Positions 5,877-26,790 of a DNA stretch of 56,999 bases are shown piece by piece (position 1 is the stretch's first letter; every line of letters starts with the position of its first letter). Source of the stretch: an uncultured Candidatus Saccharibacteria bacterium. GTDB taxonomy: Bacteria; Patescibacteriota; Minisyncoccia; Phycocordibacterales; UBA9973. The notes below the pieces were generated by a model. The model had not been told where the DNA came from, made no database searches, and was given only the letters and a program-made list of their open reading frames with translations. The DNA is taken from assembly GCA_964520225.1 (NCBI GenBank), contig CAZFNV010000005.1, forward strand, positions 1 through 56,999, given 5' to 3'. The position numbers and the translations under genes were made by a program.

Positions 5877-5893
5877 TTATTTAATTTAAAAAT

Positions 5894-7846
5894 ATGAAAA
5901 AGAAAAACAGGCTGTCCTTCAGCTCTATTAGCATCGAGTCAGATCAAGCAAATACTGGCAAAACTTCACACGCAGGTTCCCATACCACAGACAGGCATAA
6001 AACCAGCAGAAGTAGCACTCACACATCTCCCCGAAAGAGAACTTCGAAGAGTTCGACTTTCCAATACACCCAGAAAGGTTTCGGTGGCAAGCGCGGATCT
6101 TTCGGCAACAAAGGCGGAACTAAACTCCGAGAAGAATCCAAAATACCTCCAGTAGAGCCTGGAACTATACGCGTCATACCTCTCGGTGGCGTAGAAGAAG
6201 TTGGCCGTAACATGCTCCTGGTTGAATCCGAACATGACATCGTGGTGCTCGATGTGGGCTTTCACTTTATTGAAGAAGATGAAACCATGGGAGTAGATTT
6301 TACTCTGCCTAATTTCAAATATTTAGAAGAACGCAAAGAGAAAATCCGCGCTGTGGCCATAACTCACGGCCACCTCGATCACATCGGCGGTATTCCGTTC
6401 ATTATGGATCGTATTGGCAACCCTCCGATATACGCCCAGTATCTGACCACCCTCATGATCAAGAAGCGCCAGGATGAGTTCCCGGCTAACGCTCCGCTCA
6501 ATATCAATGTAGTCGATCCAGACAGCGTGATCCGCTTCAACGAGCTCGCCCTTGGGTTCTTCCCTGTGGTCCACTCTATTCCAGATTCGATGGGTGTGAA
6601 AATAATAACCCCTCTAGGCAACATACTTGTTTCAGGTGACATGAAGCTCGAGCACGAAGGCGCTCACGCCAGCGCAAGAGAGGAAAAGAAATGGACAGCT
6701 CTAGGTAAAGAAAAGCCTCTGCTCATGATTGCCGACTCTACTAGTTCAGAAATTCCCGGCTTTTCTATCGCCGAGAAAGAGGTGCAGAAAAACCTAGAGA
6801 ATATAATCCGCACCACCGAAGGGCGTCTGATAATCGGGACCTTTGCTTCTCAATTCGACCGCATGATCAGGATTGTGCAGATCTGCGAGCAATTTAATAA
6901 AAAAATAGTTCCCGAAGGGCGCAGCATCAAGAACAACTTGGAAATTGCAAAATTGGCTGGCCTCTTGAACGCTAAAGAAGAAACTTTCATTGAAGCCCAA
7001 GATGTCGAGAATTATCCTCCGAACAAAATAGTCATCATTGCTACCGGCGCCCAGGGTGAAGAATTCGCGGCGCTTATGCGTATGGCTACCAATAAACACA
7101 AATATCTGCGCCTTCACCCTACCGACACAGTAGTCTTGTCTTCTTCTGCTATCCCTGGCAACGAGCTCAATATCCAGAAGCTGAAAGACCATTTATATCG
7201 CCACGACTTGAAACTCATCCACTACGGTACAGCAGAAGTTCACTCCGGAGGTCATGCTCGCCAAGAAGATCTGGTCTTGATCAATAAAATGGTAAATCCG
7301 AAATTCTTCATGCCTGGATACGGCAACCACTTCATGCTCCGCATCCACGCCCAGCTCATCCAAACTCGCAACAACTTCCCTCGAGAGAATATAGTCGTAC
7401 CTGACAACGGTATGATAGTGGAGTTCTCAGATAACGGCAACAAAATGACCGTACGCAAAGAGCGTGCCCCTTCATCGCTCATGGTAGTAGATGGCTTAAA
7501 GATAGGCGATGTACAAGATGTAGTGGTACGTGACCGCGTGCTCCTCGCCCAAGACGGAATGTTTGTGATAGTTGCGCTTATCGACCAGAAAACAGGCAAG
7601 CTCAAAAAGTCTCCTGACTTGATCTCTCGCGGATTCGTGTATCTAAAAGAAAACCAGGAACTACTACATCAGGTAAGACTCATCATCAAGAAATCTGTAG
7701 AAGAAGCCCCGGTGAAGCGCGGTGGTGCACTCAACACAAATGACTTTGACCAGATCAAAGCCTCTCTCGGTGAGAATGTATCTAAATTCCTATTCCAAAA
7801 AACTGCCAAGCGTCCTCTGGTCATCCCAGTGATACTCAGTGTATAG
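5894..7846 (+). CDS. rnj: Ribonuclease J with a basic Ser/Thr/Lys-rich N-terminal extension of about 90 aa
   Basis: Metallo-beta-lactamase motif HGHLDHIGG, a beta-CASP region, 650 aa. Confidence 0.85.
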   Translation: MKKKNRLSFSSISIESDQANTGKTSHAGSHTTDRHKTSRSSTHTSPRKRTSKSSTFQYTQKGFGGKRGSFGNKGGTKLREESKIPPVEPGTIRVIPLGGVEEVGRNMLLVESEHDIVVLDVGFHFIEEDETMGVDFTLPNFKYLEERKEKIRAVAITHGHLDHIGGIPFIMDRIGNPPIYAQYLTTLMIKKRQDEFPANAPLNINVVDPDSVIRFNELALGFFPVVHSIPDSMGVKIITPLGNILVSGDMKLEHEGAHASAREEKKWTALGKEKPLLMIADSTSSEIPGFSIAEKEVQKNLENIIRTTEGRLIIGTFASQFDRMIRIVQICEQFNKKIVPEGRSIKNNLEIAKLAGLLNAKEETFIEAQDVENYPPNKIVIIATGAQGEEFAALMRMATNKHKYLRLHPTDTVVLSSSAIPGNELNIQKLKDHLYRHDLKLIHYGTAEVHSGGHARQEDLVLINKMVNPKFFMPGYGNHFMLRIHAQLIQTRNNFPRENIVVPDNGMIVEFSDNGNKMTVRKERAPSSLMVVDGLKIGDVQDVVVRDRVLLAQDGMFVIVALIDQKTGKLKKSPDLISRGFVYLKENQELLHQVRLIIKKSVEEAPVKRGGALNTNDFDQIKASLGENVSKFLFQKTAKRPLVIPVILSV

Positions 7847-7902
7847 CCCTCAGTAGTAGAATTTTTAAAAAATTTCACTACAGGGTATAATTGGGAATAC
7901 TG

Positions 7903-9051
7903 ATGAAAAATATCAATGTTATATATCTGGCCGGATTCCTGTTCTCATTCCCGATAGCTCTCGCCGCCTACATCAATTCGAGCTTCCTGGCTTCATTCAC
8001 TGGAGAAAAAATAGTTGGGATTGGTTACACCTTAGGATCTATTGTTTCTATCATATGCTTGTCGCTTGCGCCGAAGCTGTGGCGCAAGCTAGGTGGATAC
8101 ACCTTCCTGTCACTCGTCGCCCTGCTCGACATAGCTACATTTGCCACGCTTGCGTACACCACTCATGCCGAAGTGGCGATACCGGCCTTTGTGATAGGTA
8201 TTGCGCTCAATACTTTGATAATATTCTCACTAGACGAATTCATCGAGCTCTCAGCTGACAACGCCATCACCGGTAGAGTGCGTGGTAAATACCTTACCAT
8301 TGCGAGCTTTGCCTGGATTTTAGCCCAGCTCTCGATCGGAACAATATTCCAAAATCTGAATTTTCAGATGCTATACCTAGTGTGCGGAGTGGTGCTCACG
8401 ACATTCCTGCTCTTGGTTATAATTTATTTCAGGAACATTCAAACTTTTGAATACAAAAAACCGAACGTCTGGCACCTCCTTGGAGAATTCACTACTCATA
8501 AGAATCTAGTTCGCGCTTGTAAAATAAATTTCTTGCTCCAGTTCTTCTTTGCTTGGATGGTTATTTACACCCCGATATATCTGGGGGCACACTTAGGATT
8601 CACCTGGGCGGAGATCGGCAAGATATTCACGGTGATGCTCCTCCCTTTTATACTCATACCACTCCCGCTCGGCAAATATTCTGACAAAGTTGGCGAGCGG
8701 ACCATGCTAATGCTTGGATTCCTAGTTACATCCATTGCTACAATCTTAATATTTTTTATTAAAGTGCACAGCATACTTGTCTGGATGGTTATACTATTCC
8801 TTACTCGCGTTGGCGCTTCTACCGTAGAGACAATGAGTGATGTTTACTTCTTCAAACACATTGATCCGAAGAATGAAGAATATGTGAGCATATACCGTAG
8901 CGTCTCACCTGTCGCCTACATCACCGCTCCGATAGTTGCCCTATTCGTGCTCATCTACGTTCCCGCGTTTGAATATCTTTACTTGATACTAGGTTTAATT
9001 ATGCTCTCTGGAATATATCTGGCTTCACGTATTAGCAAACGAGATATTTAA
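7903..9051 (+). CDS. MFS transporter
   Basis: About 12 predicted TM segments. The ATG at 7903 lies 11 nt after TATAAT (7886-7891). Confidence 0.65.
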   Translation: MKNINVIYLAGFLFSFPIALAAYINSSFLASFTGEKIVGIGYTLGSIVSIICLSLAPKLWRKLGGYTFLSLVALLDIATFATLAYTTHAEVAIPAFVIGIALNTLIIFSLDEFIELSADNAITGRVRGKYLTIASFAWILAQLSIGTIFQNLNFQMLYLVCGVVLTTFLLLVIIYFRNIQTFEYKKPNVWHLLGEFTTHKNLVRACKINFLLQFFFAWMVIYTPIYLGAHLGFTWAEIGKIFTVMLLPFILIPLPLGKYSDKVGERTMLMLGFLVTSIATILIFFIKVHSILVWMVILFLTRVGASTVETMSDVYFFKHIDPKNEEYVSIYRSVSPVAYITAPIVALFVLIYVPAFEYLYLILGLIMLSGIYLASRISKRDI

Positions 9052-14187: not shown

Positions 14188-14271
14188 CTGATTTTACCCT
14201 GTAGTGAAACTTTTGCAAAGCTCCGTATTAAAAAAATTCTCCAGAAACGAAAGACACTGTGATTGTTTATA

Positions 14272-14607
14272 TCAAAGTTTATACAAATATTCTTTTATCC
14301 TATCTTTATCTTCATTTTCTTTTTCTCCTTTGAAATATACCTCTATGTACATAAATTTAATACTATTATTATGATACGCATAAATAAGACGGATTACTCG
14401 TGACCTTAATGATTCACAATGGACTCGTACTTTTATGATCGTTGTGTCACCTTCAATTTTAATTATAGTAAAATTCTTGCCGATTCCTGTAGGGCATTCA
14501 AGTAACACAGGCTTTATATCATCAATATCAGATAACAGTGTAGGATATTTCCTGGAAAGTTTTTTGAGTTCTTTTTCAAACTCAGGAAGCATAGAAAAAG
14601 TACTCAT
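14272..14607 (-). CDS. RelE/ParE-superfamily-like toxin (candidate PanT)
   Basis: 111 aa; FEKELKKLSRKYP...IIKVRVHCESLRSRVIRLIYAYH...IEVYFKGEKEN is the RelE/HigB-like pattern. It lies 5 nt downstream of the antitoxin gene. Confidence 0.5.
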   Translation of the reverse strand: MSTFSMLPEFEKELKKLSRKYPTLLSDIDDIKPVLLECPTGIGKNFTIIKIEGDTTIIKVRVHCESLRSRVIRLIYAYHNNSIKFMYIEVYFKGEKENEDKDRIKEYLYKL

Positions 14608-14612
14608 AGGAG

Positions 14613-15338
14613 TTAGTTGTCAGATACAGAAGTTTCGTCAGGGCGATAAAACACGTGTCTATAATTAAGTTCTTGCTTATCTTTTGCCACCCTCCAAGGT
14701 GTATCTTTGTGTGATAACTCAGACAATTCCTTCGCAGATTTTGAAGCCAAGCGAACAAGTTCGTCGTCAATATGTTTCAATTCTTGTGCAGACAACAAAG
14801 AAACATCTGGCTCTGATGTTACAAGATATTTCTTCTGATCATAATTAAAATGCTTGCTATTGACCTCAACCAGCTCACCCTCACTCTCCAAATCTCGAGC
14901 AATCTTCGCAAATGAAACCGGTGTAGGACCATACGTATTCCTAATATATTTTGCACCAATCAAATACCTTTGATATTTTTCATAATAATCAAAGTCTATA
15001 AAATAAAGGAGTTTATATAATGCGGTTTGCCCTATGTTTGGACGACTACCCACTTTACTAACAACATATAATAAAACTTGCTTGAAACGTTCAGTATTTT
15101 CTTTTGGAATTTCTTTTGGTTTAATTTCAAAATTCGTCTCCATATGAATATTTTCTTTCTCCGCTGTTTCTTTAGAAACACCGAAAATACTCGCCAAAAG
15201 CGCCTTTTGTTCTTCGGTTGGTTTGGACTCACCTTTTTCAAGCTTTATATACGTAGGACGAGAAATACCTAAAATCTTGGCGACTTCTGCTTGAGAAATA
15301 CCCGCCAATTTACGCTTTGTTTGTATCCAATTAGACAT
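14613..15338 (-). CDS. XRE-type HTH fused to a Panacea (DUF4065) antitoxin domain
   Basis: The N-terminal LAGISQAEVAKILGISRPTYIKLEKGE is the HTH. GQTALYKLLYFIDFDYYEKYQRYLIGAKYIRNTYGPTP is the DUF4065 signature. Confidence 0.75.
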   Translation of the reverse strand: MSNWIQTKRKLAGISQAEVAKILGISRPTYIKLEKGESKPTEEQKALLASIFGVSKETAEKENIHMETNFEIKPKEIPKENTERFKQVLLYVVSKVGSRPNIGQTALYKLLYFIDFDYYEKYQRYLIGAKYIRNTYGPTPVSFAKIARDLESEGELVEVNSKHFNYDQKKYLVTSEPDVSLLSAQELKHIDDELVRLASKSAKELSELSHKDTPWRVAKDKQELNYRHVFYRPDETSVSDN

Positions 15339-15375
15339 ATTAATATATTACCATAATATGCACATACTTATCAAC

Positions 15376-15395
15376 TTGACTGTGGATAATGTCAA
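15376..15395. promoter_or_regulatory. Inverted repeat in the XRE-Panacea promoter (candidate operator)
   Basis: TTGAC-N10-GTCAA lies upstream of TTGATA-N18-TAATAT-N6-ATG on the minus strand. Confidence 0.3.
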
Positions 15396-15549
15396 AATGT
15401 AAAATATGCGTATGGCAAAAATTAAAGGAAAATTAATACAAACAAATAACATTGGACCACTTCAGTATGTTAAAAGAAATAACTTGTCTGGTGATTTCTC
15501 GCATATTGTAAAAACTAAACAAATACCAAAAGGAAAGAAAAAGTCATAG

Positions 15550-15628
15550 CCCCCGCCTCAAAAATTTTCCGCCGAAAATTTTTAGGTGCAGTTTGCCTGC
15601 TTCTCCCATCCCGCCTACGGCGTGCTGG
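15550..15628. repeat. Repeat copy A: CCCCCG + A/T hairpin block, then a 41-bp block
   Basis: 15588-15628 (gcagtttgcctgcttctcccatcccgcctacggcgtgctgg) is identical 41/41 to 19187-19227. The hairpin block ctcAAAAATTTTCCGcCGAAAATTTTT is shared with 19084-19110 apart from one base. Confidence 0.85.
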
Positions 15629-15749
15629 CCTTGTGGCGCGAAGTTGGAACAATTGTAAGCCAATATCAAACATATGTCCATAAATAAACCAATTAAAAAA
15701 ACGGTCTGATTTTGTTGTATTTTTCCAGAAAAAGTATAATATCAACTAT

Positions 15750-16862
15750 ATGGAAAAGATCGAAAATACCACCACCTTACTTGACCCAATAAAGATCAAC
15801 TACTTCCACCCCGATAGCCTTCTTTTGGATGCTGAAAATCCTCGTTTTGCCGGCTTAATTGACTCAAAGGTTAGCAACAACGAACTCCTGAAAAAGCTCC
15901 GTAAGGAGATGTATTTGGACGAATTAATTGATTCTTTTCGAGAAAATGGTTATTACAATACCGAACCGCTTCTTGCCATAAAATCTAATAAGGATCCTAA
16001 AAAATTTATCATCATCGAAGGCAATAGAAGGCTCGCTGCTATTAAGTTGCTTTTGACTGACGAATTTAAAGGTAAAGTTGATAAGAAAATCATAAAGCAA
16101 CTTTCGACAGAAATTCCTGTTGCCGTATATCCAAGCAGAAAAACACTCTGGACTTATCTAGGTTTTAGACACATCAATGGGCCTAAAGAGTGGGATTCAT
16201 ACAGTAAAGCTGTATATGCACTGACGGTTCATGTTGAATATAAAATTCCCATAAAAGATATCGCTGACAAAATCGGCGACAAAAATCAAACTGTTGTAAA
16301 AATGTGTAATGGATTGAGATTATTACAACAAGCTGAAAAACAAGGTTATTTTTCTTCTGAAGATGTTGACTTAAAACGTTTTTATTTTTCTCACTTATAC
16401 ACTATTATTCAGAAAAATAACACTAAGAGTTTTTTAGGGCTTCCATCAAAGACGAATGAAGTATTCAAGGCAAATCCTGTATCCAAAAGTAAAATAAAAA
16501 ATTTACAACTTCTCTTAAACTTATTGTTTGGTAGCAAGGATGGTTCCGTAAAACCGGTTATTAAATCACAGAACCCAGATTTAAGAAACTTAGATGAAAT
16601 TATTGGAAATAAAAAAGCTTTAAAGTATCTTACTGAAAACAAGACAGAAAGTAATGTATTGGATAATGCTCTTAGTTTCACTGGAAGTGAAGAATCGGTC
16701 TTGGAAAGCCTTATGTTTAAATCTTTAAACACTCTAAGAAAAGCTAGCGGTATGCTATATAGTTACAAGGGGGATGATGAAACTTACAAAGAAGCCAAGG
16801 AAATAGAAACTGTTGCTAACTATATAGTTGCTCAGATGGAAATAAAGCGGAAGAAAAAATAA
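15750..16862 (+). CDS. ParB/Sulfiredoxin N-terminal-domain protein
   Basis: 370 aa; LLDAENPRF ... FIIIEGNRRLAAIKLL is the ParB-type GxRR box. TTGTTG-N17-TATAAT lies 9 nt upstream of the ATG. Confidence 0.6.
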   Translation: MEKIENTTTLLDPIKINYFHPDSLLLDAENPRFAGLIDSKVSNNELLKKLRKEMYLDELIDSFRENGYYNTEPLLAIKSNKDPKKFIIIEGNRRLAAIKLLLTDEFKGKVDKKIIKQLSTEIPVAVYPSRKTLWTYLGFRHINGPKEWDSYSKAVYALTVHVEYKIPIKDIADKIGDKNQTVVKMCNGLRLLQQAEKQGYFSSEDVDLKRFYFSHLYTIIQKNNTKSFLGLPSKTNEVFKANPVSKSKIKNLQLLLNLLFGSKDGSVKPVIKSQNPDLRNLDEIIGNKKALKYLTENKTESNVLDNALSFTGSEESVLESLMFKSLNTLRKASGMLYSYKGDDETYKEAKEIETVANYIVAQMEIKRKKK

Positions 16863-16863
16863 G

Positions 16864-17769
16864 ATGGCTGTTTTCATAGATTTACCTAAAATTCGTCAGA
16901 ATAATAAATTACAACTTTCTGACTGGATGGAAATAAGTGCTCTACTGGATAATTCCGATAATTCTTCCAGCCTTGAAGAGCTTATATCTCTTCTTAAGGT
17001 TTCTACTGATGATTCTGATGAGATCAGAGCGGATGTTTCTGCAGAGTTAATTTCTAGAACAAAAAAGCTTTCTACTGCATACCCTTTTTCGTTCAATGGA
17101 ATTATCCTCAAAGTAAAAAACCCTAAAGACTTTAGCAATCAATGGGCTTACATATTTTGTTTACTCATTTCTTATTTTGGTGTGAACAAGGGAGATTTAG
17201 GACTCTCACTCTGGAAACAAAAAGATGTTACTTCTTTATTTGAACACATTTCCACCATAGCAGCCAAACACTTTCTTTCCTCAAGTGAACATGAGGCAAA
17301 AGAGTTGAAATTTGGTTTTCCCAGAGATAGTTTAGATAAGAAATATAAATCTTTTAAAGCAGCACTAGAACTTTTAAAAAATGTAATTCAAGAAGGTACT
17401 CTTACTACTAATCCCAGCTATAGAAATCAAAAGGATGCTGGTCTTGATATTGTCGTCTGGAGAAATTTCCCTGATGGAAAAACAAATAAACTTTTACTAC
17501 TTGGTCAGTGTGCGGCTGGTAATGATTTTAAACAGAAAAGAAAAGATATACAAAAAATCGAAGGATTTTTCACTTTTCTCACAACCCCAATTAAAGGATT
17601 TTTTATTCCTCACGAGTTAGATGATGAAATATGGGGAGAACTTAGCTTTGATAGTTACATAGGAATTATATTTGATCGTAGTCGTATTGCATCTTACGCA
17701 AAAGCGTGGAATGGGCAAGGTTTTATATCGAATTTTGAGGCCATAAAGAACAAACTGAGGAAAAAATAA
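16864..17769 (+). CDS. Hypothetical protein, possible degenerate PD-(D/E)xK (Mrr-like) nuclease core
   Basis: 301 aa. It starts after a 1-nt gap from the ParB-like gene. DAGLDIVVW...LLLLGQCAAGNDFKQK resembles a D...QxK core, but the Lys position is Ala. Confidence 0.3.
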   Translation: MAVFIDLPKIRQNNKLQLSDWMEISALLDNSDNSSSLEELISLLKVSTDDSDEIRADVSAELISRTKKLSTAYPFSFNGIILKVKNPKDFSNQWAYIFCLLISYFGVNKGDLGLSLWKQKDVTSLFEHISTIAAKHFLSSSEHEAKELKFGFPRDSLDKKYKSFKAALELLKNVIQEGTLTTNPSYRNQKDAGLDIVVWRNFPDGKTNKLLLLGQCAAGNDFKQKRKDIQKIEGFFTFLTTPIKGFFIPHELDDEIWGELSFDSYIGIIFDRSRIASYAKAWNGQGFISNFEAIKNKLRKK

Positions 17770-17823
17770 TTGGCTGGCAATGGGTTGTGGCCATTTATAA
17801 TCTAATATGTTAAAATAAGCTTA

Positions 17824-18669
17824 ATGATTTATTCACCTCTGCGATATCCTGGAGGAAAAAATAAAGTCTCGAAGTTTATTCAAGATGAGGTTTTTAATGT
17901 TAACGATTTAAAGGGTGGTGTATATGTTGAGCCATACGCTGGAGGTGCTTCTGTTGCGTTAAATCTTTTGATAGAAAAAAAAGTATCAAAAATAATAATT
18001 AACGACTACGATAGATCGGTTTACGCTTTTTGGTATTCTGTTTTGAATGATACAGATGCATTTTGTGAAAAAATTAAAAAAGCACCCATTACAATAAAGA
18101 ATTGGAAAAAACAAAAAGAGGTACAAAAGCATAAAAAACAAGCTTCTCTTTTTGATCTTGGCTTTTCGACTTTTTTCTTAAATCGTACGAACCGATCAGG
18201 AGTGATCTCTGCTGGACCAATAGGTGGACTAAATCAGAAAGATAAGTGGAAAATTAATGCTAGGTTTAATAAAAAAAATCTTATTGAACGAATTAGATTA
18301 ATTGCTCAGCATAAAAATAATATAAAAATATATCAACTAGACGCGGTTAAACTTATTGAAAAGATTTCAAAAAAACTACCCGACAAAACACTTATATACT
18401 TTGATCCTCCTTACTATGTAAAAGGGCAAAAATTATACGTTAACTTTTATACGCATGAAGATCACATCTTAGTCGCAAATGCGGTAAAAGATATTAACGG
18501 TCCTAAGTGGATAGTTTCTTATGACAATGTAAAACCTATTGCTAATCTTTATACCAAATATAGAAAGAGAGTATATGACTTACCGTACAGTGTAATAAAT
18601 GGAACTACAGGAAAAGAAGTTATGTTTTTCAGTAAAAATCTAAAAATTAATTCTAAATTTCTTAGTTAA
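17824..18669 (+). CDS. DNA N6-adenine methyltransferase, D12 (Dam) class
   Basis: LRYPGGKNK, EPYAGGASVAL, FFLNRTNRSG and IYFDPPYY motifs. Confidence 0.85.
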   Translation: MIYSPLRYPGGKNKVSKFIQDEVFNVNDLKGGVYVEPYAGGASVALNLLIEKKVSKIIINDYDRSVYAFWYSVLNDTDAFCEKIKKAPITIKNWKKQKEVQKHKKQASLFDLGFSTFFLNRTNRSGVISAGPIGGLNQKDKWKINARFNKKNLIERIRLIAQHKNNIKIYQLDAVKLIEKISKKLPDKTLIYFDPPYYVKGQKLYVNFYTHEDHILVANAVKDINGPKWIVSYDNVKPIANLYTKYRKRVYDLPYSVINGTTGKEVMFFSKNLKINSKFLS

Positions 18670-18986
18670 TAGATGATACTTTTTTTAGCTACTTCTTTAA
18701 TTGCGTTAGCAATTTTTTCTAAATGAGTTTCGATTAACTGATTTGTAATTGATAGAGTATGGCATTTACTTTGGTCGGAATAATAAACACGGTTAAAGTC
18801 AAAAATAATTTGGAGTGGATTCGTGTAATGTTGTAAACCGTTAACTTCTATGTTCATAGGAACATCAGGGAGAAAAATATCTACATGCTTGTGCCCATCC
18901 CAGTATTCAAGCTGAGTTTTAATTCCTCGCTTATTTAATTCTTCAGCGAGTTTGAGAGTTTGTTTAGTTGAAATTATTTTTGGCAT
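18666..18986 (-). CDS. DUF559/Vsr-like small endonuclease-fold protein
   Basis: 106 aa; HVDIFLPDVPMNIEVNGLQH follows the DUF559 pattern (vDf...l.iEvDG..H). It overlaps the Dam gene's 3' end by 4 nt, convergently. Confidence 0.45.
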   Translation of the reverse strand: MPKIISTKQTLKLAEELNKRGIKTQLEYWDGHKHVDIFLPDVPMNIEVNGLQHYTNPLQIIFDFNRVYYSDQSKCHTLSITNQLIETHLEKIANAIKEVAKKSIIY

Positions 18987-19076
18987 AGACGCAAAAAGCC
19001 CATCACGGGTAGAGACCGAAGTCTCTCGTATTCGTTTCTAGATCTTGCTGGAACCCCAGGGCCCGCTCCGCATTCT

Positions 19077-19227
19077 CCCCCGTCTCAAAAATTTTCCGTC
19101 GAAAATTTTTGGACTGGGCACCTGCTCGTGGATTTTTATTGCTATAAAAATCACACTCCGCCGTTCTCGTCCTAGTCGCAGGCAAAGCAGTTTGCCTGCT
19201 TCTCCCATCCCGCCTACGGCGTGCTGG
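19077..19227. repeat. Repeat copy B: the same two blocks as copy A, split by a 76-nt GC-rich insert with extra hairpins
   Basis: 19077-19110 matches 15550-15583. 19187-19227 is identical to 15588-15628. The insert contains GTGGATTTTTAttgcTATAAAAATCAC and the palindrome gcaggcaaaGCAGtttgcctgc. Confidence 0.85.
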
Positions 19228-19281
19228 GTGTCTGGGATTGTATCCGAACGGAATTGTTGATAAATAAGGTTTAAAACTACT

Positions 19282-20385
19282 TTATACTCCAGACTTAGTT
19301 CGATTATCTTGTTTACATAACATCTGGCAATTTTCGGCTATAGTTTTTCCTCCTTCGTGCCATGGATTGATATGATCAGCTTCCATTTCTCCAATTGCAA
19401 ATTCCTTTTTACACACAGGACAAATACCATTTTGTCGTTCGTATGCTTCTCGCTTCATATTTGGTGTAAACGCTCGAATAGAGAGATATCTTTCTTTTCT
19501 AGTAAGCACATAAGGATAAATACCAGATTTTTTTGTTACATCTTCATTTTGCATTAATTCTTTAATTTCTTTTTCTAATTTTTTTGAATCAAGTTTTTTA
19601 TCCTTAAATGCATTGTAAAGTTCACCCCAATTTACACTAGACATCTCTTTTCTATAATTTGGAAAAGTTTCCCGCACCCAATGAATTACATTTTGAAAAT
19701 ATTTCCATAATGCGTCTGCGTTTTTATCATGCTGATGTTTTGCCATATAATCTTCTATCTTTTCATTATTTATCCACGATAAAGCAGTTTCTAGGTATTC
19801 TTGTCGAATAGGAGAACCTGTTATTAATTGTCCACCATCATTTGATAGTAAATATGCCACACAATTTGATTTACTAAATTTCAATTTTGCATCAGAAAGC
19901 CATGGGCCAGTATATACGGCATTTCTTAATTCTTGGTCAGTTAGTTTTTCACCAGCAATATTAATAATTTTAAACCAGTCAAGTTTTTCCTTATCGTTTC
20001 CTTCACAATGGTAAATCATAAGATCATAATTCATAATCTGATTTTGTTCTTCTTTGGTTAAATTATGAAACATTGCTATTCGTCCATTAAATTCAATAGA
20101 AAAATCTCCATTTACATATTGAGCGATACTGATTGTTCGTTGTTGTCCATCAAGCACTTCAAAATTACCATCTTCTTTCTTAACCCAATACATAACATTA
20201 AGCGGAAAACCATTTTTGATAGTATTTATCACTTCATCTCGTTGTTTTCCGCTATATACAAACTCTCTTTGGTATTTTGGGCGAATATCTAACTTACCAC
20301 CAAAAGCAGATACGCCTTCCTCGGCACTATCTTTATAGTTCTTAATAACTTCTGAAATTTTTATTTTATGTAAATTTATTTCCAT
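19282..20385 (-). CDS. DUF262 (ParB-like, GmrSD N-domain) fused to an HNH nuclease
   Basis: IRPKYQREFVY...FEVLDGQQRTISI is the DUF262 DGQQR box. The C-terminal CPVCKKEF...EADHINPWHEGGKTIAENCQMLCKQDNRTKS is the HNH. Confidence 0.8.
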   Translation of the reverse strand: MEINLHKIKISEVIKNYKDSAEEGVSAFGGKLDIRPKYQREFVYSGKQRDEVINTIKNGFPLNVMYWVKKEDGNFEVLDGQQRTISIAQYVNGDFSIEFNGRIAMFHNLTKEEQNQIMNYDLMIYHCEGNDKEKLDWFKIINIAGEKLTDQELRNAVYTGPWLSDAKLKFSKSNCVAYLLSNDGGQLITGSPIRQEYLETALSWINNEKIEDYMAKHQHDKNADALWKYFQNVIHWVRETFPNYRKEMSSVNWGELYNAFKDKKLDSKKLEKEIKELMQNEDVTKKSGIYPYVLTRKERYLSIRAFTPNMKREAYERQNGICPVCKKEFAIGEMEADHINPWHEGGKTIAENCQMLCKQDNRTKSGV

Positions 20386-20386
20386 A

Positions 20387-21556
20387 TTATTTTTGTGGTT
20401 TTTTATTTTTAATTAAAATTCTCATATAAACAACTTTTAATTCGCCATTTACATTAACAACTGGACCCCTATTAAGGTCATTATAATTTTTCGCATCTTC
20501 TATTGTATAAGTTTTTGTTCTTACACCTTCAGAGTTTTGTCTATCTGCTATCCAAATTATTTCAAACTGATCTGGGTTATATTTATCAAGAAAAGTAATT
20601 GGTACACCAATAACACCCTCATAATCCATTGGAATATCTGAAACTTTATTTACATTTATCGCTTCGTAGTTATCATACTTCGGATATTCTTTTGATGAAT
20701 ATTTTTTATAAAAAACCAAGTTTTCATGTCGCTTACCCGTATCAAGATTTGTATACCAATTTACTGCTGGAACTTTAACATACCCATCATTCGGGTTATA
20801 GCCTTTCCCTTTAACAAATTGCTTGTTGGCTTCAAGATCATTACTATAAGGAGTTTTATATACCATTGACATATTGAAACCATAACCAGACCATAATTTA
20901 TTTTCTTTTATCAATCTAAAAACTTCTTTATATGTAATTGCGTTCATATTTCCTAAAATTAAAAACTTCTTATTATATTCAATTAATTGAGCAACGTATT
21001 CTCTAAACAATGAAAATGGAGGATTGGTTACCACAATATCTGCTTGTTTTAAAAGCTCAACACTTTCTGGACTTCGAAAGTCTCCATCACCTTCCATTGG
21101 TGACCATTCGTTATTTTTATTTGATTTAAGTTGTTCAGCAATATCTCGCAAATCAAAAGCTCCATCGCCATCGAGATCATGAACTTCATTTATAATAAAT
21201 TTATTAGCATTCACTTTTGGGCGACCTTTTGGCGTACTAAGTGTTTTATTGTCACCAAATAATCCTAGTTGAGTATTAGCAATCGGTGATGGCTTGTAAC
21301 TCGTAGCGATAAGTTTCTTCAAACCTAAAGCATTAAAATTTGAGGCAAAATATTTAAAAAAATTACTTTCAAAAGGATCATCACAATTGCAATATACTAC
21401 CTTATTGCGAAACTGATCTTTGTAATGTTTTAACTCTTTTTCAATATCAACAAGCTGGGTATAAAACTCATCTTTTTTTGCTTGGTTAGCTTTGTGTAAG
21501 TTTTTGTTTGAAGATTTACTTTTCGTATTTTTAGCCATAAACCTATTATAACTCAA
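20387..21556 (-). CDS. N6-adenine DNA methyltransferase, M.EcoRI family
   Basis: As I recall M.EcoRI, the match runs along the length: KKDEFYTQLVDIEKEL, VVYCNCDDPFESNFFKYF, GDGDFRSPES, IVVTNPPFSLFREY, YPKYDNYEAINVNK, GVPITFLDKYNPDQFEI. Confidence 0.8.
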   Translation of the reverse strand: MSYNRFMAKNTKSKSSNKNLHKANQAKKDEFYTQLVDIEKELKHYKDQFRNKVVYCNCDDPFESNFFKYFASNFNALGLKKLIATSYKPSPIANTQLGLFGDNKTLSTPKGRPKVNANKFIINEVHDLDGDGAFDLRDIAEQLKSNKNNEWSPMEGDGDFRSPESVELLKQADIVVTNPPFSLFREYVAQLIEYNKKFLILGNMNAITYKEVFRLIKENKLWSGYGFNMSMVYKTPYSNDLEANKQFVKGKGYNPNDGYVKVPAVNWYTNLDTGKRHENLVFYKKYSSKEYPKYDNYEAINVNKVSDIPMDYEGVIGVPITFLDKYNPDQFEIIWIADRQNSEGVRTKTYTIEDAKNYNDLNRGPVVNVNGELKVVYMRILIKNKKPQK

Positions 21557-21582
21557 AAGGATATATAAAACTAAAGAAGAAT

Positions 21583-23022
21583 TTATTTATTAATTCCTAA
21601 CGTTTTCTTTGCTTTTTGTATAAAAATACTCATTTCTTTATCGTTTTCATAAGTATCTATAAAATCTTTTAAGATTATACTCCCTTTTTGCTTATCTTTT
21701 TTAAGGTATGTTACGAACCCTTCAATAAATATGAGATAAGGGTAAAAATTGGTTTTTTTTCTTCGCTCAATAAACTCAAAAACAGAATCAATTGATCCTT
21801 TTGACAATGAACCTCTTCTTAAAGCCTCATCATACAATTCAATTCCAGACTGAAATTTTTTATCTCGTTCAATTTTAAGAAATGCCTTACTTAATTTAAA
21901 GGATGCATCTTGTGGGTAGCGAGAAGCTTCTTCTAGGTGAGAATCAACTTTTTGTTCATACCCAGCACCTTTTAGGTAATAGTGGTGTGCTAAACTTAAG
22001 TTAGCATAATAATAATTCGGTTTGAATTCTAATGATTTCTCTTGATATTTTATGGCTTCATCAATATTGCCTTGACTGTAATAAAAACCGCCTATTAAAT
22101 TATTTTCTATTGCTAATAATTCTTTAGTTCTTGATAAGAGAGTTTTAAGATAGTATTCAGTTATACACCTAGGCTCTAATATTTGTAATAATCTTTCATG
22201 GTATTTCATAGCAACACCAACTTGTCCTGATACATATGCGGAAGAACCAAGAGAAAATAATATATTTTCTCTTATATTATCAGTAACTACTTCTAGTGCT
22301 CTCATCTCTTCTGCTACTGGGAAATCCCAAGGTTGAGTAATTAAAAAACTTGTAAATTCTTTACCCAAGTCTTCGCTAGTTTTTATATTGATTGGTTTGT
22401 GTTTTACGACATAATTAGGCTCTAGTTTGTAAAATTCCTTACCACCCTTGGATGATTTTTTTACTGATCCAAATAAAATAAAATTCCATTTTATTTTATC
22501 CATATTGACTTTCCATCTAGATTTTTTAAAGAGAGGATTCCAGAATTTATCTTTTTCCCTAATAATCTTTCTACTTTTATATTCATCCAACGATATAACA
22601 TGGAAAATATCTCCAAATCCTACATTACTAAGTGTGTCATCAATTTCTTTATAAATTTTAAAAATAAAAGATTTTGATTCCTTGTCCTCATATTTATTTG
22701 ATATCCCTATGTATACACCGACTTTATTTTTTGGGGTTTTTGGATATTTTATTTTTTGAAAAATTATTAAAAATAATAATAACCATATTAATGAAATTCC
22801 CCATAAATAAGTAAAGGTAATGTTGCTAGAAATATTACTTTGCAAAAAAATTTTATTTATCGTTACTGCTTCATGAAAAGTGGCTATAAAAGGAATAGAA
22901 AGTATACTTGTAAGTAAAATCACACCTAATGGTTTTTGCCAGTTATCTAAAAGCCATTGTTTTACATAAGTAAAAACAAAATCTTCTGCTTCTTTTTCTG
23001 TTCTCTTAAATATTCCGATCAT
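21583..23022 (-). CDS. Membrane-anchored TPR-repeat protein, function unknown
   Basis: 479 aa with two N-terminal TM segments and an unassigned central domain. The C-terminal repeats are TPR-like (GGFYYSQGNIDEAIKYQEKSLEFKPNYYYANLSLAHHYY). Confidence 0.55.
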   Translation of the reverse strand: MIGIFKRTEKEAEDFVFTYVKQWLLDNWQKPLGVILLTSILSIPFIATFHEAVTINKIFLQSNISSNITFTYLWGISLIWLLLFLIIFQKIKYPKTPKNKVGVYIGISNKYEDKESKSFIFKIYKEIDDTLSNVGFGDIFHVISLDEYKSRKIIREKDKFWNPLFKKSRWKVNMDKIKWNFILFGSVKKSSKGGKEFYKLEPNYVVKHKPINIKTSEDLGKEFTSFLITQPWDFPVAEEMRALEVVTDNIRENILFSLGSSAYVSGQVGVAMKYHERLLQILEPRCITEYYLKTLLSRTKELLAIENNLIGGFYYSQGNIDEAIKYQEKSLEFKPNYYYANLSLAHHYYLKGAGYEQKVDSHLEEASRYPQDASFKLSKAFLKIERDKKFQSGIELYDEALRRGSLSKGSIDSVFEFIERRKKTNFYPYLIFIEGFVTYLKKDKQKGSIILKDFIDTYENDKEMSIFIQKAKKTLGINK

Positions 23023-23051
23023 GTAATAATTTTTACTTTTTTACATTAATT

Positions 23052-24131
23052 TTAATCTTTTTCTTCTTTTTTCTTTTCATTTTTTCTTTCAGCTTTTAAT
23101 TTAAGTTTCATACCAGAAATTTCTAATACTTGAGATGCAGAAATAAATGCGGGATTATTCATCATTTTTAAACCTTCCACAAAACCTTTTGATTGTTCTT
23201 GGGTCGGCTCTCCTTTAACGATAGGATCAAGAAGGGTTTTTGTTATAGAAAATGTGTCATAAAAAAATGAGATGAAAGGATCGTGCCTTGCATCTTTAAA
23301 AGCATCCTCTGTAAAATACTTAACTGCTTCATCAAGACCCAAGAAAAGAATCTTGTCATTGTGATTATTTAAAATCTTAATTCCTTTTTTCTCAAAACTA
23401 GAGATGTAATTGGGTACATTTTGATTAATGTAATTTATGATATACCAACCCCAATCTTCCAATAAAATTTCATTTATTATTCCTGTGTCAGTAATGTAGA
23501 CTTTTTTACTTAACATACTTAAAGTTTTACCCATGTTCGTTTCATTTTCTGGTTCAGAAAAAATTTTAAAAACACCAATAGCCATACAAGTAAGTAATAG
23601 TTTCGGTTGAATGGTATTCAGTTTACTGAATTGTTCTTGAAATTCTTTAACATCTTCTTTCGGAATTTTATCTGATATTTCAATCTCGGCTTTAATCACA
23701 TCAATTGTATTATCTAAAATGTCTCCTTGTATAACCATAGTTCCCCAATCTTCTTCGTCTATGATTTTGTGCAATACGCTTTTATAAAGATTGGCAATAA
23801 ATAAATTATTACTTTCATTATCTTTTAAACCAAACTTAACTGCATATCTAGAAAAATTTCTTTCAATATTTTCTTTTTTGATTTGTGGTTCTTTTTTACC
23901 ACACTCACCCCTACAATCTAAATCACAACGATAATTTCTGTCTGAAACTCTAAGATAATGTTTTGATGAAGCAAATCTCAAAACACCCTTTTTAAAGAAG
24001 GGCGGTTTTGTTATTTCGTATGGTATTGTTTTTGGTTCTTTTTTCATTCCGCAAATAATATCCTTATTTTTTAAGGTTTTTGAAATTTTTCCTAAATTTC
24101 CGTCAAACCCCTCTTGGTATCGTATTCGCAT
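23052..24131 (-). CDS. Hypothetical protein (359 aa), Cys cluster near the N-terminus
   Basis: Long clean ORF containing CDLDCRGEC. No family was recognised. The true start may be the ATG at 24047 (MKKEPK), because the ATG at 24131 overlaps the divergent ATG at 24130. Confidence 0.45.
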   Translation of the reverse strand: MRIRYQEGFDGNLGKISKTLKNKDIICGMKKEPKTIPYEITKPPFFKKGVLRFASSKHYLRVSDRNYRCDLDCRGECGKKEPQIKKENIERNFSRYAVKFGLKDNESNNLFIANLYKSVLHKIIDEEDWGTMVIQGDILDNTIDVIKAEIEISDKIPKEDVKEFQEQFSKLNTIQPKLLLTCMAIGVFKIFSEPENETNMGKTLSMLSKKVYITDTGIINEILLEDWGWYIINYINQNVPNYISSFEKKGIKILNNHNDKILFLGLDEAVKYFTEDAFKDARHDPFISFFYDTFSITKTLLDPIVKGEPTQEQSKGFVEGLKMMNNPAFISASQVLEISGMKLKLKAERKNEKKKEEKD

Positions 24132-24275
24132 GTTATCGTTTAGTCAATTATTAGTCGAACGTATCCAAAAGTATTTCAAAAGGAAATATAACTTGGATAT
24201 TTCTGATGAAACAGCAAATGAATACCTGCATACGTTGGGCGGTATGTTTGCTGTATTTGCTGAAAGTGAGGGAAA

Positions 24276-24313
24276 GCCCCCGCCCGATTCCCTTTATGGG
24301 GACGGGCGGGGGC
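24276..24313. other. 11-bp GC hairpin, candidate replication origin / nick-site hairpin for the adjacent Rep
   Basis: GCCCCCGCCCG-attccctttatgggga-CGGGCGGGGGC, about 80 nt upstream of the Rep start. It is the only GC-rich patch in this AT-rich stretch. Confidence 0.4.
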
Positions 24314-24391
24314 AACCTCCACGCTCTCCCTGACTTGATAGTTGCCTTATATTAGACGACTAAGAATTATAAGACTTAATACTAAAGTTTT

Positions 24392-25309
24392 ATGGGCTAT
24401 AACAAATTTATTAGAAGTGGTAACCAATTAGAATTATATGAATATGAAAAAGATTTACCAATACGACGAACTCAACGAAAACGAAAGATTTTTCGTGGAC
24501 AATCAGTCGGAACTAGAACCTTCATTGGAAGATCAGAAGAAGGCACAGATACGCTTAGAGAAATTCTTGGCGGAGGAAGGATTCAAGACGAAAGAGAAAC
24601 AATTTCTTCCAGAGAAAGGGATATACATAGTGAGAATATTTCTTCTAGCGGAACAGATACACTTCAACTTCAACAATTTGCACAAAAGAAACAGCAGAAA
24701 CGCAGAGATAACGCACAACGCTCTGGAATGGCTTTTAGAAGAATCGTCTGTTCTAACCTTGAACCAACTGAAAACCCTTTACTCATTACTCTTACCCACA
24801 AAGAAAATCTCGGAGATATTTCCGAAAGCAACAGATTGTTTAAACTTTTTATCCAGCGTGCGAGAATTAAATACGGTAGAACGTTCCGCTACATTGCCGT
24901 ACCGGAATTTCAACGACGTGGTGCTGTTCATTATCACGCTTTGTTCTGGGGGCTACCTATTGAACTATACTATCGAGAACGGCAAACTCGTGAACTTGCT
25001 AACATCTGGGGAAACGGATTTACCGACATTGTTTTAACTGATGGAAATGAAAAACTTTCTTCTTACTTAGCAAAATATATGATTAAAAATTTACAAGATG
25101 AACGTTTATGGAATCAGAAAGTATATTTTTGTTCTCGTAATATTAAACGTCCAGTAATAGTAAGCGGTTTTGAGACTTTTAGGTTTATCGAGAAAGACTA
25201 TAATTTAGAAGCTCTTACTCCCGTTTTGGAGAGAAAATATGATACTCAATGGCTAGGCGAAGGTCGATATAGATTATTTGATGCTTCCAATTTAAAAAAT
25301 TTAGAGTAA
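24392..25309 (+). CDS. rep: HUH rolling-circle replication initiator (Rep_1/pC194-like)
   Basis: Motif 1 LLITLTHKEN, motif 2 GAVHYHALFWG (HUH), motif 3 SSYLAKYMIKN (catalytic Tyr), in the canonical order. Confidence 0.7.
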   Translation: MGYNKFIRSGNQLELYEYEKDLPIRRTQRKRKIFRGQSVGTRTFIGRSEEGTDTLREILGGGRIQDERETISSRERDIHSENISSSGTDTLQLQQFAQKKQQKRRDNAQRSGMAFRRIVCSNLEPTENPLLITLTHKENLGDISESNRLFKLFIQRARIKYGRTFRYIAVPEFQRRGAVHYHALFWGLPIELYYRERQTRELANIWGNGFTDIVLTDGNEKLSSYLAKYMIKNLQDERLWNQKVYFCSRNIKRPVIVSGFETFRFIEKDYNLEALTPVLERKYDTQWLGEGRYRLFDASNLKNLE

Positions 25310-25323
25310 TATCTTTAGTAATT

Positions 25324-26790
25324 ATGAAATACATTATTTACTGCCGAAAATCACAAGAAAACGAAGATAGACAAGTAATGTCTTTGGAATCTCAAGAATC
25401 TGAAATGTTGCAAATTGCTAAGAAAAATAATTTGGAAGTTTTAGAAATTCTCCACGAAAGCAAATCAGCAAAATCTTTAGGTCGTCCCGTTTTTGCTAAA
25501 ATGATGGACACAATTAAAAAAGGAAAAGCTCAAGGAATTATTTGTTGGAAACTTGATCGTCTCGCAAGAAATTTTATTGATGGTGGTTTAATTATTGATT
25601 CTCTACAAAAAGGAATTATTAAAGAAATTCGCACTTATGAATCCGTCCATTTTCCAAATGAAACTGTTTTTCTTTTGGCTATGCAATTCGGAATGGCTAA
25701 TCAGTACAGCCGAGATTTATCTACAAATGTTAAACGCGGAAATCGGGCAAAATTAGAAAAGGGTGAATGGCCTAATCATGTTCCACTTGGATATTTGAAT
25801 GACAAAGCTACTAAGACAGCCAAGATAGATAAAAAGTTTGCCCCGTATGTTGTGCGTGCGTATGAACTATATTTAACTGGTGGTTATACTCTTCCTCAAA
25901 TTTCACAAATTTTATATGACGAAGGTTTAAGAACTAAAACAGGTGGTATGTGTCGCTCGAATCAAATTCATAGATTTTTTATAAATCGTTTTTATTGCGG
26001 AATGATGGAACGAGACGGAAAAGTTTATAACGGAAATCATAAAGCCATTGTTTCTATTTCTCAATTTAATCAAGCTCAAGAAATTTTACATAATAGACAA
26101 CACCCACACCCTAAGAAATATTTTTACTCTGCTCAAGGATTTTTAAAATGTGAAAATTGTGGTTGTTCTTTAACTGTTGATACAAGGAAAGGACATCAAT
26201 ATTATTATTGCACTAACGGCAAAGGTAACTGCGAAGAACATAGATCTTATATGCGATCTGAATATGTAGATGAGATTTTATCTGAAATGTTTAAAGTCCT
26301 TGCATTTGATAAGGAAATTATTGAAATTTCATACCAAGCATATAAAGAGTTAAATATGCAGAAAGCGGACTACGTGGATACCAGTAAAGATAACCTCTTA
26401 AACGAGCTAAATGGGCTTCTAGACAAGGAATCTCTCCTTGTAGATAGTTATACTTCCCAAGTGCTTAGGAAAGAATTATACGAGCAAAAAATGCTTGAGA
26501 TTGATAATAGGCGAACTGAATTAAATAAACAATTGAAAGAAATTGAACTGAAGGGTGCTTTATCTGAATCTACTCTCGAACAGATCAAAAAGGTATTTTT
26601 AGATGGAAATACAGCGTCAGAAAAGTATTTGACGTTAAATGATTATGAAAAGAGAAAGATGCTAGAAAAGTTACTCTCGAACGCAACATTCAAAAGTAAA
26701 AATATTGTTAATTATCAATTCAAAAAGTTGTTTTCTCCTATGGCAAATACACCTAAAAATTGTGATTTGCCGACTCTGCTGGGAGACTAG
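25324..26790 (+). CDS. Large serine recombinase (integrase)
   Basis: The N-terminal resolvase domain is YCRKSQENEDRQVMSLESQ...DRLARN. It is followed by a recombinase domain, a Cys zinc ribbon (CENCGCSL...YYCTNGKGNCEEH) and a coiled-coil tail. Confidence 0.9.
   Translation: MKYIIYCRKSQENEDRQVMSLESQESEMLQIAKKNNLEVLEILHESKSAKSLGRPVFAKMMDTIKKGKAQGIICWKLDRLARNFIDGGLIIDSLQKGIIKEIRTYESVHFPNETVFLLAMQFGMANQYSRDLSTNVKRGNRAKLEKGEWPNHVPLGYLNDKATKTAKIDKKFAPYVVRAYELYLTGGYTLPQISQILYDEGLRTKTGGMCRSNQIHRFFINRFYCGMMERDGKVYNGNHKAIVSISQFNQAQEILHNRQHPHPKKYFYSAQGFLKCENCGCSLTVDTRKGHQYYYCTNGKGNCEEHRSYMRSEYVDEILSEMFKVLAFDKEIIEISYQAYKELNMQKADYVDTSKDNLLNELNGLLDKESLLVDSYTSQVLRKELYEQKMLEIDNRRTELNKQLKEIELKGALSESTLEQIKKVFLDGNTASEKYLTLNDYEKRKMLEKLLSNATFKSKNIVNYQFKKLFSPMANTPKNCDLPTLLGD

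Follow-up and report, generated by a model that had tools for sequence, protein, structure and literature searches.

Two neighbouring genes of probably different standing, backbone and cargo, in a tRNA-inserting element of a Saccharibacteria bacterium

The mobile element described here is a low-GC island within a 56,999-nucleotide stretch of DNA from an uncultured Candidatus Saccharibacteria bacterium (assembly GCA_964520225.1, contig CAZFNV010000005.1, positions 1 to 56,999; hereafter the window). Among described systems it is close to the pSAM2-type actinomycete integrative and conjugative elements (AICEs), with which it shares a tRNA-targeting integrase, a replication initiator (Rep) of rolling-circle (RC) type (weak matches to RepSA; PF23343) and a set of cargo genes. 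It differs from them in that its integrase is a serine and not a tyrosine recombinase, its hosts belong to the candidate phyla radiation (CPR) and its cargo is largely made of restriction-modification (R-M) or defence genes; unlike in pSAM2-type AICEs, an FtsK-like transfer gene was not found among the scanned open reading frames (ORFs) of the element. The phage-inducible chromosomal island-like element (PLE) of Vibrio cholerae offers a second comparison, being likewise a small island integrated by a large serine recombinase (LSR) and carrying a defence-related payload (PMC6002521). The two have no sequence relationship, and the element shows no sign of phage-induced excision or satellite behaviour and has no relatives in IMG/VR. 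LSRs recognise the outer motifs of the att sites through their zinc domain, which also bears the coiled-coil that sets directionality; recombination directionality factors (RDFs), which share no fold, act at this zinc domain and coiled-coil (PMC5814800, PMC11795197, PMC11722253). Large serine integrases have become genome-engineering tools, the use of which for excision is limited by the difficulty of finding the cognate directionality factors (PMC11795197, PMC12286644). Mobile elements of CPR bacteria (Patescibacteria) are poorly described, and a literature search found no description of the family reported here.

Two adjacent minus-strand genes of the island, which we call gene A and gene B, are the subject of this study. 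A preliminary description of this DNA had proposed that they form a new sensor/effector pair, or that they are accessory components of an R-M-like gene pair lying downstream. We come to a different reading, to which we assign a probability of roughly 0.6: both are real genes, of different standing within a single mobile element, gene A belonging to its backbone and gene B to its cargo, and they do not form a functional pair.

The two ORFs lie where they had been placed (Table 1), with gaps of 29 nt between gene A and gene B and of 26 nt between gene B and the TTG start of the DNA methyltransferase (MTase) gene that follows; the latter may instead start at an ATG 18 nt downstream of the TTG. 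At a local GC content of 27-31% stop codons come up often, yet both ORFs are long, and full-length homologues at 35-54% identity exist for each; both are thus real genes. The start of gene A needs correction. All its homologues begin at Met29 of the 359-residue (aa) ORF, 28 codons later, and 24130 is the start of a conserved 67-aa ORF that runs divergently; gene A therefore probably starts at the ATG at 24047 and encodes 331 aa. Residue numbers below follow the 331-aa protein unless marked otherwise. Apart from the tetratricopeptide repeats (TPRs) of gene B, neither gene matched a known family in Pfam, PADLOC, PHROG or NCBIfam, in agreement with the preliminary description, and PADLOC-DB v2 returned 0 families at E <= 0.1 for each.

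Gene A in a family of tRNA-inserting elements

A word-seeded search returned five clusters of close homologues of gene A, one of which comes from a Candidatus Nomurabacteria metagenome-assembled genome (MAG). An exhaustive profile search extended the family to 90 clusters at 50% identity, mostly of 300-340 aa and without fused domains. Genomic contexts were compared in 11 independent lineages with enough flanking sequence, down to ~21% identity. In 11 of these 11 related loci, gene A stands head-to-head with a replication gene that is followed by an LSR, whatever the cargo, and lies within ~3 kb of that LSR. The loci with an LSR, a Rep and a divergent gene A are L001-L007, L014-L016, L022, L027-L031 and L034. 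In every element, the transcription unit that runs leftward on the cargo side begins with gene A. The hosts are Nomurabacteria and Saccharibacteria MAGs, both CPR (L022 being from a Saccharibacteria MAG), and the LSR of the window is 94% identical to that of a Candidatus Nomurabacteria MAG element. Where the flank is available, a tRNA gene is found beside the LSR, overlapping its stop codon in most loci; tRNA-Gln (TTG or CTG) accounts for seven loci, tRNA-Pro for a single one. The same arrangement is seen in the window, where the LSR stop codon lies within the 3' end of tRNA-Gln(CTG).

One locus is informative as to which part of the module gene A goes with. In L034, an HTH_36 protein stands in for the RC Rep, while a serine recombinase, tRNA-Gln, a small ORF and gene A remain. 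Thus, it is with the recombinase module that gene A is linked, and not with any one Rep. The L034 recombinase (7162-8244) is itself unusual: it has only 360 aa, ends soon after the zinc ribbon without a long C-terminal region, and lies ~380 nt from tRNA-Gln. It is either naturally short or decayed.

The genes that come after gene A vary by locus. They encode a PD-(D/E)xK-like protein of 159 aa, DUF4352/DUF6864 proteins, DUF3761/NYN-S51 proteins, Fic and unknown proteins and, where R-M cargo is present, a ResIII + N6_N4-MTase R-M system or a type III MTase. A close homologue of gene B was found in 0 of the 11 independent loci. Gene A relatives were absent from IMG/VR, and tblastn gave no match in 72,556 plasmids or 50,697 phages; with no plasmid match, gene A has no counterpart in pSAM2-type AICEs. 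Gene A is thus a signature backbone gene of a family of tRNA-inserting CPR elements, which combine a compact LSR/Rep module with this orphan gene, are tRNA-Gln-specific and repeatedly ferry R-M and other defence cargo between ultra-small bacteria.

Gene B and the genes it travels with

Gene B is predicted to be a membrane-anchored protein made of a two-helix transmembrane (TM) hairpin, an alpha/beta domain and a C-terminal TPR region. This is the layout given in the preliminary description, and hydropathy, the AlphaFold2 (AF2) model and Foldseek all agree with it. A charged helix precedes the TM segments, for which AF2 predicts helices at 31-59 and 65-91, and a Lys-rich stretch with 6 K/R and 0 D/E comes just after TM2. 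Because the positive stretch follows TM2, both termini are predicted to be inside the cell and the soluble part to be cytoplasmic. For the central domain, neither the Pfam, PADLOC, PHROG and NCBIfam models nor the PDB sequences gave a match, and a profile search with it added no further relatives, returning just one known member. A TIR-like reading of its beta-alpha-beta region, made on the sequence pattern alone, was dropped as no model supports it. SLATT-type Pfam models gave no match at E <= 1 in any of the 7 members of the gene B family. At the sequence level a single TPR is recognised, with Pfam TPR_2 and TPR_8 below threshold; in the AF2 model, ten helices of 11-25 residues occupy 292-475 with high predicted local distance difference test (pLDDT) values. 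Foldseek searches of the PDB returned consensus TPR proteins, OGT, IFIT1 and IFIT5 at E 2e-5 to 1e-3 (probability 1.00 for consensus TPR and OGT). The C-terminal half of gene B is thus a TPR superhelix as in these sensor or adaptor proteins, a likeness common to the repeat fold in general. In addition, gene B carries the TM hairpin and the alpha/beta domain, and it has no NTPase or nuclease domain as found in TPR-containing defence proteins.

The family is small. Six other clusters were found among 5.8 billion, at 44-49% identity and 470-477 aa, one of them frameshifted; profile, metagenome and IMG/VR searches added none, and the same plasmid and phage collections gave no tblastn match. Close homologues of gene B were placed in four other contexts, all without gene A. 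In L008, the homologue (P0009) lies between GAPDH and a pair made of a 96-aa gene and HicA, in an otherwise housekeeping stretch. In L017, it is followed by a 462-aa unknown protein, two D12 MTases and an LSR fragment; in L020, it lies between DUF6879 and a nucleotidyltransferase; and in L024, it begins inside the last part of a gene for a Vsr mismatch endonuclease. Two observations on these loci stand on their own. The L024 copy (1069-2479) is frameshifted into ORFs of 314 and 166 aa and is likely a pseudogene. In L017, a LexA DNA-binding domain and S24 peptidase are fused to a D12 adenine methyltransferase (4516-6015), next to the second D12 MTase, an unusual fusion of an SOS-type regulator and an MTase. 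The 462-aa protein of L017 was tested as a possible gene B-like protein and is not one, and neither is a 468-aa DUF8370/8371 protein of L014.

Could gene B be a housekeeping protein of CPR bacteria, i.e. an envelope or scaffold TPR adaptor of the LapB/YciM or pilus-assembly kind that was merely picked up by the element? P0009 sits in a stretch running from GAPDH to pentose-phosphate genes that is conserved across many samples, and gene B has weak NCBIfam matches to the TPR regions of PilW and MamA. Yet the rarity of the family is at odds with a core function, the L008 copy abuts the HicA toxin gene, the L024 copy is broken and the other copies lie in mobile or defence-type contexts. We regard such a role as improbable.

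A more distant relative was found in L027, one of the gene A elements. Directly after gene A, this element encodes a 455-aa protein with the same succession of two TM helices, alpha/beta domain and TPRs as gene B. It matches gene B by hmmsearch at E 9e-9, over the C-terminal half, and by hhalign at E 9e-5, with 17% identity end to end. The order in L027 is gene A, this B-like gene, an N6_N4 MTase, an EcoO109I-type restriction endonuclease (REase) and an SLFN/AlbA_2 protein. Since the family is so rare, it is unlikely to be a coincidence that gene B or a B-like gene occupies the same slot twice, before different R-M pairs.

These arrangements bear on the earlier suggestion that the two genes are accessory to the R-M genes. 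That the downstream genes are an M.EcoRI-like MTase and its nuclease partner was confirmed by strong Pfam and PADLOC matches (Table 1). The suggestion that A and B are accessory to this pair did not stand as such, neither gene being obligate: the cassette of MTase and DUF262-HNH nuclease has counterparts of 54-61% identity on plasmids of Bacillota, Pseudomonadota and Bacteroidota, the REase is held by 50 plasmid records and, in the two examples inspected, the MTase + REase pair stands alone, without relatives of A or B. What did stand is that gene B and its B-like relative recur beside R-M-type genes. Gene B could in principle be an accessory subunit or regulator of the cassette, for example a membrane tether or a gate on restriction. 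The 26-nt same-strand gap to the MTase has no terminator-like site, the B-like gene of L027 also precedes an MTase and a REase, and other homologues adjoin D12 MTases or Vsr. This idea has to contend with a cassette that is self-contained in several phyla, whereas the entire plasmid collection contains no relative of gene B, with R-M types that differ from one case to the next (EcoRI-type/HNH, N6_N4/EcoO109I, D12) and with the homologues in L008 and L020, which have no R-M neighbour. We consider it quite unlikely. A scan for promoters and terminators found no more sites than in shuffled sequence and is uninformative on co-transcription.

Gene B would rather be an independent accessory gene that travels with R-M or toxin-antitoxin-type genes, plausibly a single-gene system of defence or abortive-infection type, a proposal we make tentatively and at less than even odds. 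In such a role, protein binding by the TPRs could provide the sensor, with the membrane hairpin serving as anchor or effector. Gene B is thus a reasonable, low-priority candidate for a stand-alone defence gene.

With both sets of contexts at hand, the idea of genes A and B as a two-gene sensor/effector defence system can be assessed. The two genes are adjacent on the same strand, their 29-nt gap has no terminator-like site, and they lie inside a defence-rich island; moreover, gene A followed by a B-like gene with two TM helices and TPRs recurs in the divergent element L027. Set against this, at least 9 other element lineages have gene A but no B-like gene, close homologues of gene B occur four times without gene A, and neither gene has a match in PADLOC. 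In its 11 independent loci gene A is tied to the LSR and the replication gene while the cargo varies, and its only detectable homology is to an integrase zinc ribbon (see below). Conservation of the pair across genomes, proposed earlier as a check, was not observed, the distant order in L027 being its sole recurrence. A two-gene system is therefore very improbable. More generally, the first unknown gene in a string of defence genes can belong to the backbone of a mobile element, and not to defence.

Resemblance of gene A to the integrase zinc ribbon, and its possible roles

Gene A has no TM segment by hydropathy and no match to PDB sequences, profile searches included. Its AF2 model (pLDDT 69; predicted template modelling score, pTM, 0.65) shows N-terminal beta-hairpins at 22-41, long helices and a small beta-hairpin at 180-196. 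Foldseek, which had been proposed as a check and which gave generic TPR matches for gene B, found nothing below E 0.4 in the PDB for gene A. The preliminary description had drawn attention to a Cys cluster, C69/C73/C77 with H58 in 359-aa numbering. These residues are present in the window protein; in the wider family, invariance is limited to H30 and C41, with C49 near-invariant.

The position of these residues suggests what the N-terminal region is. Its ~70 aa are collinear with the zinc beta-ribbon of LSRs (PF13408; Listeria phage A118 integrase, PDB 4KIS), with which they have in common the pattern G-x-L ... G-[C/H]-x-L-T ... Y-Y-x-C ... K-G-x-C, then a helix. The region keeps H30, C41, C45 and C49: C41 and C49 fall on the second pair of ribbon cysteines (YYxC...KGxC), the invariant H30 stands where the LSR ribbon has a neighbouring Cys, and the first CxxC pair is replaced by F25/S28. 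Compared with LSRs, gene A has thus lost the first zinc-ligand pair, and it also lacks the domains that make a recombinase: the catalytic resolvase domain (PF00239), present in the adjacent LSR, is absent from gene A and 62 family members, as is any match to the recombinase domain PF07508.

Five independent comparisons, each of them weak, point to homology with the LSR ribbon. PF13408 itself matches 4 of 62 family members, below threshold and with a best E of 0.0036. By hhalign, the family compared with six cognate LSRs places gene A 16-76 on LSR 270-332 (E 1e-3 as a single comparison, probability 21%). A hidden Markov model (HMM) of the LSR zinc ribbon, run against 93 family members and reversed decoys, ranked 36 true members above the first decoy, with a best E of 2.8e-5 and every match at residues ~8-85. 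Conversely, the family HMM run against all ORFs of the fetched loci gave one match outside the family, at E 8.9e-6, to a C-terminal fragment of an unrelated serine recombinase that itself matches PF13408 at E 5.5e-10. Against BFVD, Foldseek placed a phage serine recombinase first (E 0.049, probability 0.80); in its PDB list, 4kis_C appears at rank 37 with a non-significant E of 4.5. Taken together, these results make it likely that the N-terminal ~70 residues of gene A are homologous to the LSR zinc ribbon. The preliminary description had named clear homology to replication, partition or structural proteins of plasmids or phages as a result that would refute its proposal; in spirit, this is what was found, the integrase zinc ribbon being the only similarity detected.

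What might a protein of this kind do for the element? Gene A may be a catalytically dead protein the zinc-ribbon-like head of which binds att sites or the DNA of a hairpin or origin; in addition or instead, it may bind the C-terminal region of the integrase. Such binding could bias excision versus integration, in the manner of an RDF. Alternatively, gene A may bind DNA so as to regulate the origin or the divergent int/rep unit, and thereby control expression or replication. In either case we infer that gene A is a factor of element maintenance, RDF-like or regulatory, and not a defence sensor. As with phiC31 gp3, Bxb1 gp47, SPbeta SprB and A118 Gp44, gene A is encoded in the integrase's own element, and since RDFs have no common fold and gene A is an orphan strictly linked to the LSR, it is a legitimate RDF candidate. 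To our knowledge, no RDF is derived from the zinc ribbon of its own integrase. Scans of PDB sequences and folds, Pfam, PHROG and NCBIfam gave no significant match between gene A and RDFs, known RDFs not having been compared singly. Gene A also differs from known RDFs in evolving much faster than its LSR; its RDF role is a prediction.

A bolder, joint proposal would make gene A the first of a new class of serine-integrase cofactors, evolved from the zinc ribbon as a "decoy C-terminal domain", and, separately, would make proteins of the gene B type (two TM helices, alpha/beta domain, TPRs) a new membrane-linked defence or R-M module. The decoy would bind the zinc-ribbon motifs of the att site or the integrase C-terminal region, and so set the direction of recombination or the choice of target in tRNA-Gln elements of CPR. 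We hold this combination to be unlikely as a whole; if true, a cofactor derived from the integrase zinc ribbon would open a new route to directionality factors.

A number of observations weigh against our reading of A as a backbone factor and B as independent cargo. The zinc-ribbon similarity is weak in each single test (hhalign probability 21%, sub-threshold Pfam matches, Foldseek E 0.05), of the four zinc ligands only two are kept, and ~250 residues beyond the N-terminus have no detectable counterpart. A full-length gene A HMM did not discriminate the six cognate LSRs from reversed decoys, because the helical, low-complexity parts dominate the score; the N-terminal signal arose only in the test restricted to the zinc ribbon and in the match on a different LSR. 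Gene A also outpaces the LSR: between the window and L001, identity is 54% for gene A, 52% for Rep and 94% for the LSR, and gene A divergence correlates with that of the LSR with a Spearman coefficient of 0.33 (p 0.09) and with that of Rep with one of -0.17. Such fast change, with weak covariation with the LSR and none with Rep, speaks against a tight co-adaptation of gene A with the LSR, and fits a regulator, immunity or conflict gene too. The 67-aa ORF between gene A and Rep is an equally good candidate for an RDF or Xis, and may otherwise encode a regulator. Both AF2 models are mediocre (pLDDT 68-69), that of gene B failing to resolve the central domain. The succession of gene A and a B-like gene in L027 would allow a functional link of A/B type in a subset of elements. 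Contexts of gene B are few (5-6), and R-M and toxin-antitoxin genes are common in variable regions, so that the association is suggestive only. Finally, no excision or circular junctions were seen in contigs assembled from public runs, in which island depth equals flank depth.

The rate of change of gene A raises a rival explanation, namely that it is a conflict gene directed at the host or at other elements (an immunity repressor, or a superinfection-exclusion or anti-defence protein) with a borrowed zinc-ribbon module. It is the fastest-evolving gene of the backbone, with 28-59% identity across the eight elements compared, shows no significant covariation with either LSR or Rep, and opens the cargo-side transcription unit. 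On the other side, it is strictly co-located with the LSR even where Rep has been exchanged, its length and architecture are uniform over ~90 clusters, and neither a helix-turn-helix (HTH) nor a known repressor fold was found in it by Pfam or by Foldseek against PDB and BFVD. We rate this explanation as unlikely, though worth keeping in mind.

Anatomy of the island

The features of the island are collected in Table 1. Its left end, at ~14.2 kb, is approximate: it was mapped by composition, and not to the base. A search at this end found no duplicated tRNA 3' end and no long direct repeat; the absence of a long repeat is expected, the integrase being a serine recombinase.

Table 1 Features of the island and of genes A and B in the window
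Feature	Position	Strand	Basis or remark
Low-GC integrative island, approximate extent (~12.6 kb)	14200..26790	.	GC 0.27-0.39 inside, ~0.43-0.49 outside
Toxin-antitoxin-like pair at island left end: HTH_3 + SocA/Panacea protein (241 aa) and 111-aa partner without family	14272..15338	-	PF13274 E 1e-15; PF01381 E 7e-13
PD-Lambda-5-like module: ParB/DUF262-like A protein, 301-aa protein, D12 adenine MTase	15750..18669	+	PADLOC; phrog_14650
106-aa ORF between Dam-type MTase and REase	18666..18986	-	Weak PHROG matches to HNH/homing-endonuclease families, E ~3e-3
DUF262 (GmrSD_N) + HNH nuclease, type II REase partner of MTase	19282..20385	-	PADLOC REase_II PDLC03418 E 4e-136, full length
EcoRI-family N6-adenine DNA MTase	20387..21556	-	PF13651 E 1e-141; PADLOC MTase_II E 1.5e-122
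Gene B ORF	21583..23022	-	479 aa, ATG start; predicted membrane-anchored TPR protein, probable element cargo
Gene B TPR superhelix, residues ~250-479	21586..22275	-	AF2 pLDDT ~66-94
Gene B central alpha/beta domain, residues ~95-245, unassigned	22288..22740	-	Conserved in family; low AF2 confidence
Gene B TM hairpin, TM1 ~31-52, TM2 ~70-88	22759..22932	-	Hydropathy scan of all family members
Gene A ORF	23052..24131	-	359 aa, ATG start
Gene A, probable true extent	23052..24047	-	331 aa, ATG 24047; backbone gene of integrative element family
Gene A, likely degenerate LSR-type zinc beta-ribbon + helix	23808..24008	-	Residues ~14-80
Small ORF, 67 aa, between gene A and Rep, divergent from gene A	24130..24333	+	Counterparts in L001 and L034
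GC-rich inverted repeat, perfect 11 bp, 16-nt loop, upstream of rep	24276..24313	.	Candidate double-strand origin (dso) or terminator
Rolling-circle Rep	24392..25309	+	PF23343 REP_ORF2-G2P E 6e-18; phrog_3419 E 7e-29
LSR (integrase)	25324..26790	+	Resolvase, Recombinase and Zn_ribbon_recom domains
tRNA-Gln(CTG), integration target and right end of element	26778..26849	-	Related elements abut tRNA-Gln or tRNA-Pro likewise

The island is an integrative and probably replicative mobile element with defence cargo; the defence-type island of the preliminary description is borne out as a mobile island rich in defence genes, on the evidence of GC content, Pfam and PADLOC. Its backbone would comprise the LSR, the rolling-circle Rep, the GC-rich hairpin, the 67-aa ORF and gene A, and its cargo gene B, the R-M cassette of MTase and DUF262-HNH nuclease, the PD-Lambda-5-like module and the toxin-antitoxin-like pair. 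A filamentous or single-stranded DNA prophage was considered, given the PF23343 Rep, and rejected: the scanned island ORFs of >=100 aa matched no structural or Zot-type family, and morphogenesis genes and viral relatives are likewise lacking.

The region between gene A and rep is shared in part with the related elements. A GC-rich hairpin lies between the replication gene and gene A in six of the seven elements examined (window 24276-24313; L001 9734-9770; L016 3485-3514; L027 7716-7772; L029 7716-7757; L022 9725-9780). The hairpin core is identical in the window and in L001 although their Reps are only 52% identical, which is odd for a Rep-specific origin. The 67-aa ORF has a near-identical counterpart of 72 aa in L001 (9701-9919) and one of 55 aa in L034 (8707-8874). 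These small ORFs (55-72 aa) have weak DUF2164/HTH_33 matches, the L034 copy giving the same weak DUF2164 match. A 199-aa ORF in an alternative frame overlaps rep (24438-25037, plus strand); in L014, which has a short Rep (171 aa), the stretch matching it (2331-2777) is called as a 148-aa gene of its own. It may represent a gene that overlaps rep, a Rep broken by a frameshift or an ORF arisen by chance.

Within the cargo, the PD-Lambda-5-like module matches PADLOC PD-Lambda-5_A at E 7e-17 and PD-Lambda-5_B at E 1.5e-120. The module and the neighbouring 106-aa ORF, in which a DUF559/Vsr-like endonuclease core can be made out by eye, are flanked by GC-rich non-coding direct repeats (15550-15628 and 19077-19227). 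These consist of a perfect 41-nt repeat (15588-15628 and 19187-19227) and a 34-nt repeat at 94% identity (15550-15583 and 19077-19110), and have no Rfam match. The contigs of the public assembly break exactly at these repeats. The repeat-flanked segment may have arisen as a nested insertion, or be a cassette that recombination exchanges.

Outside the island, ~470 nt between tRNA-Gln and the next gene (26850-27320) have no Rfam match and are covered only by an implausible ORF of 201 aa. The window itself starts inside a 16S rRNA gene (1-345, minus strand), of which it contains the first ~315 model positions.

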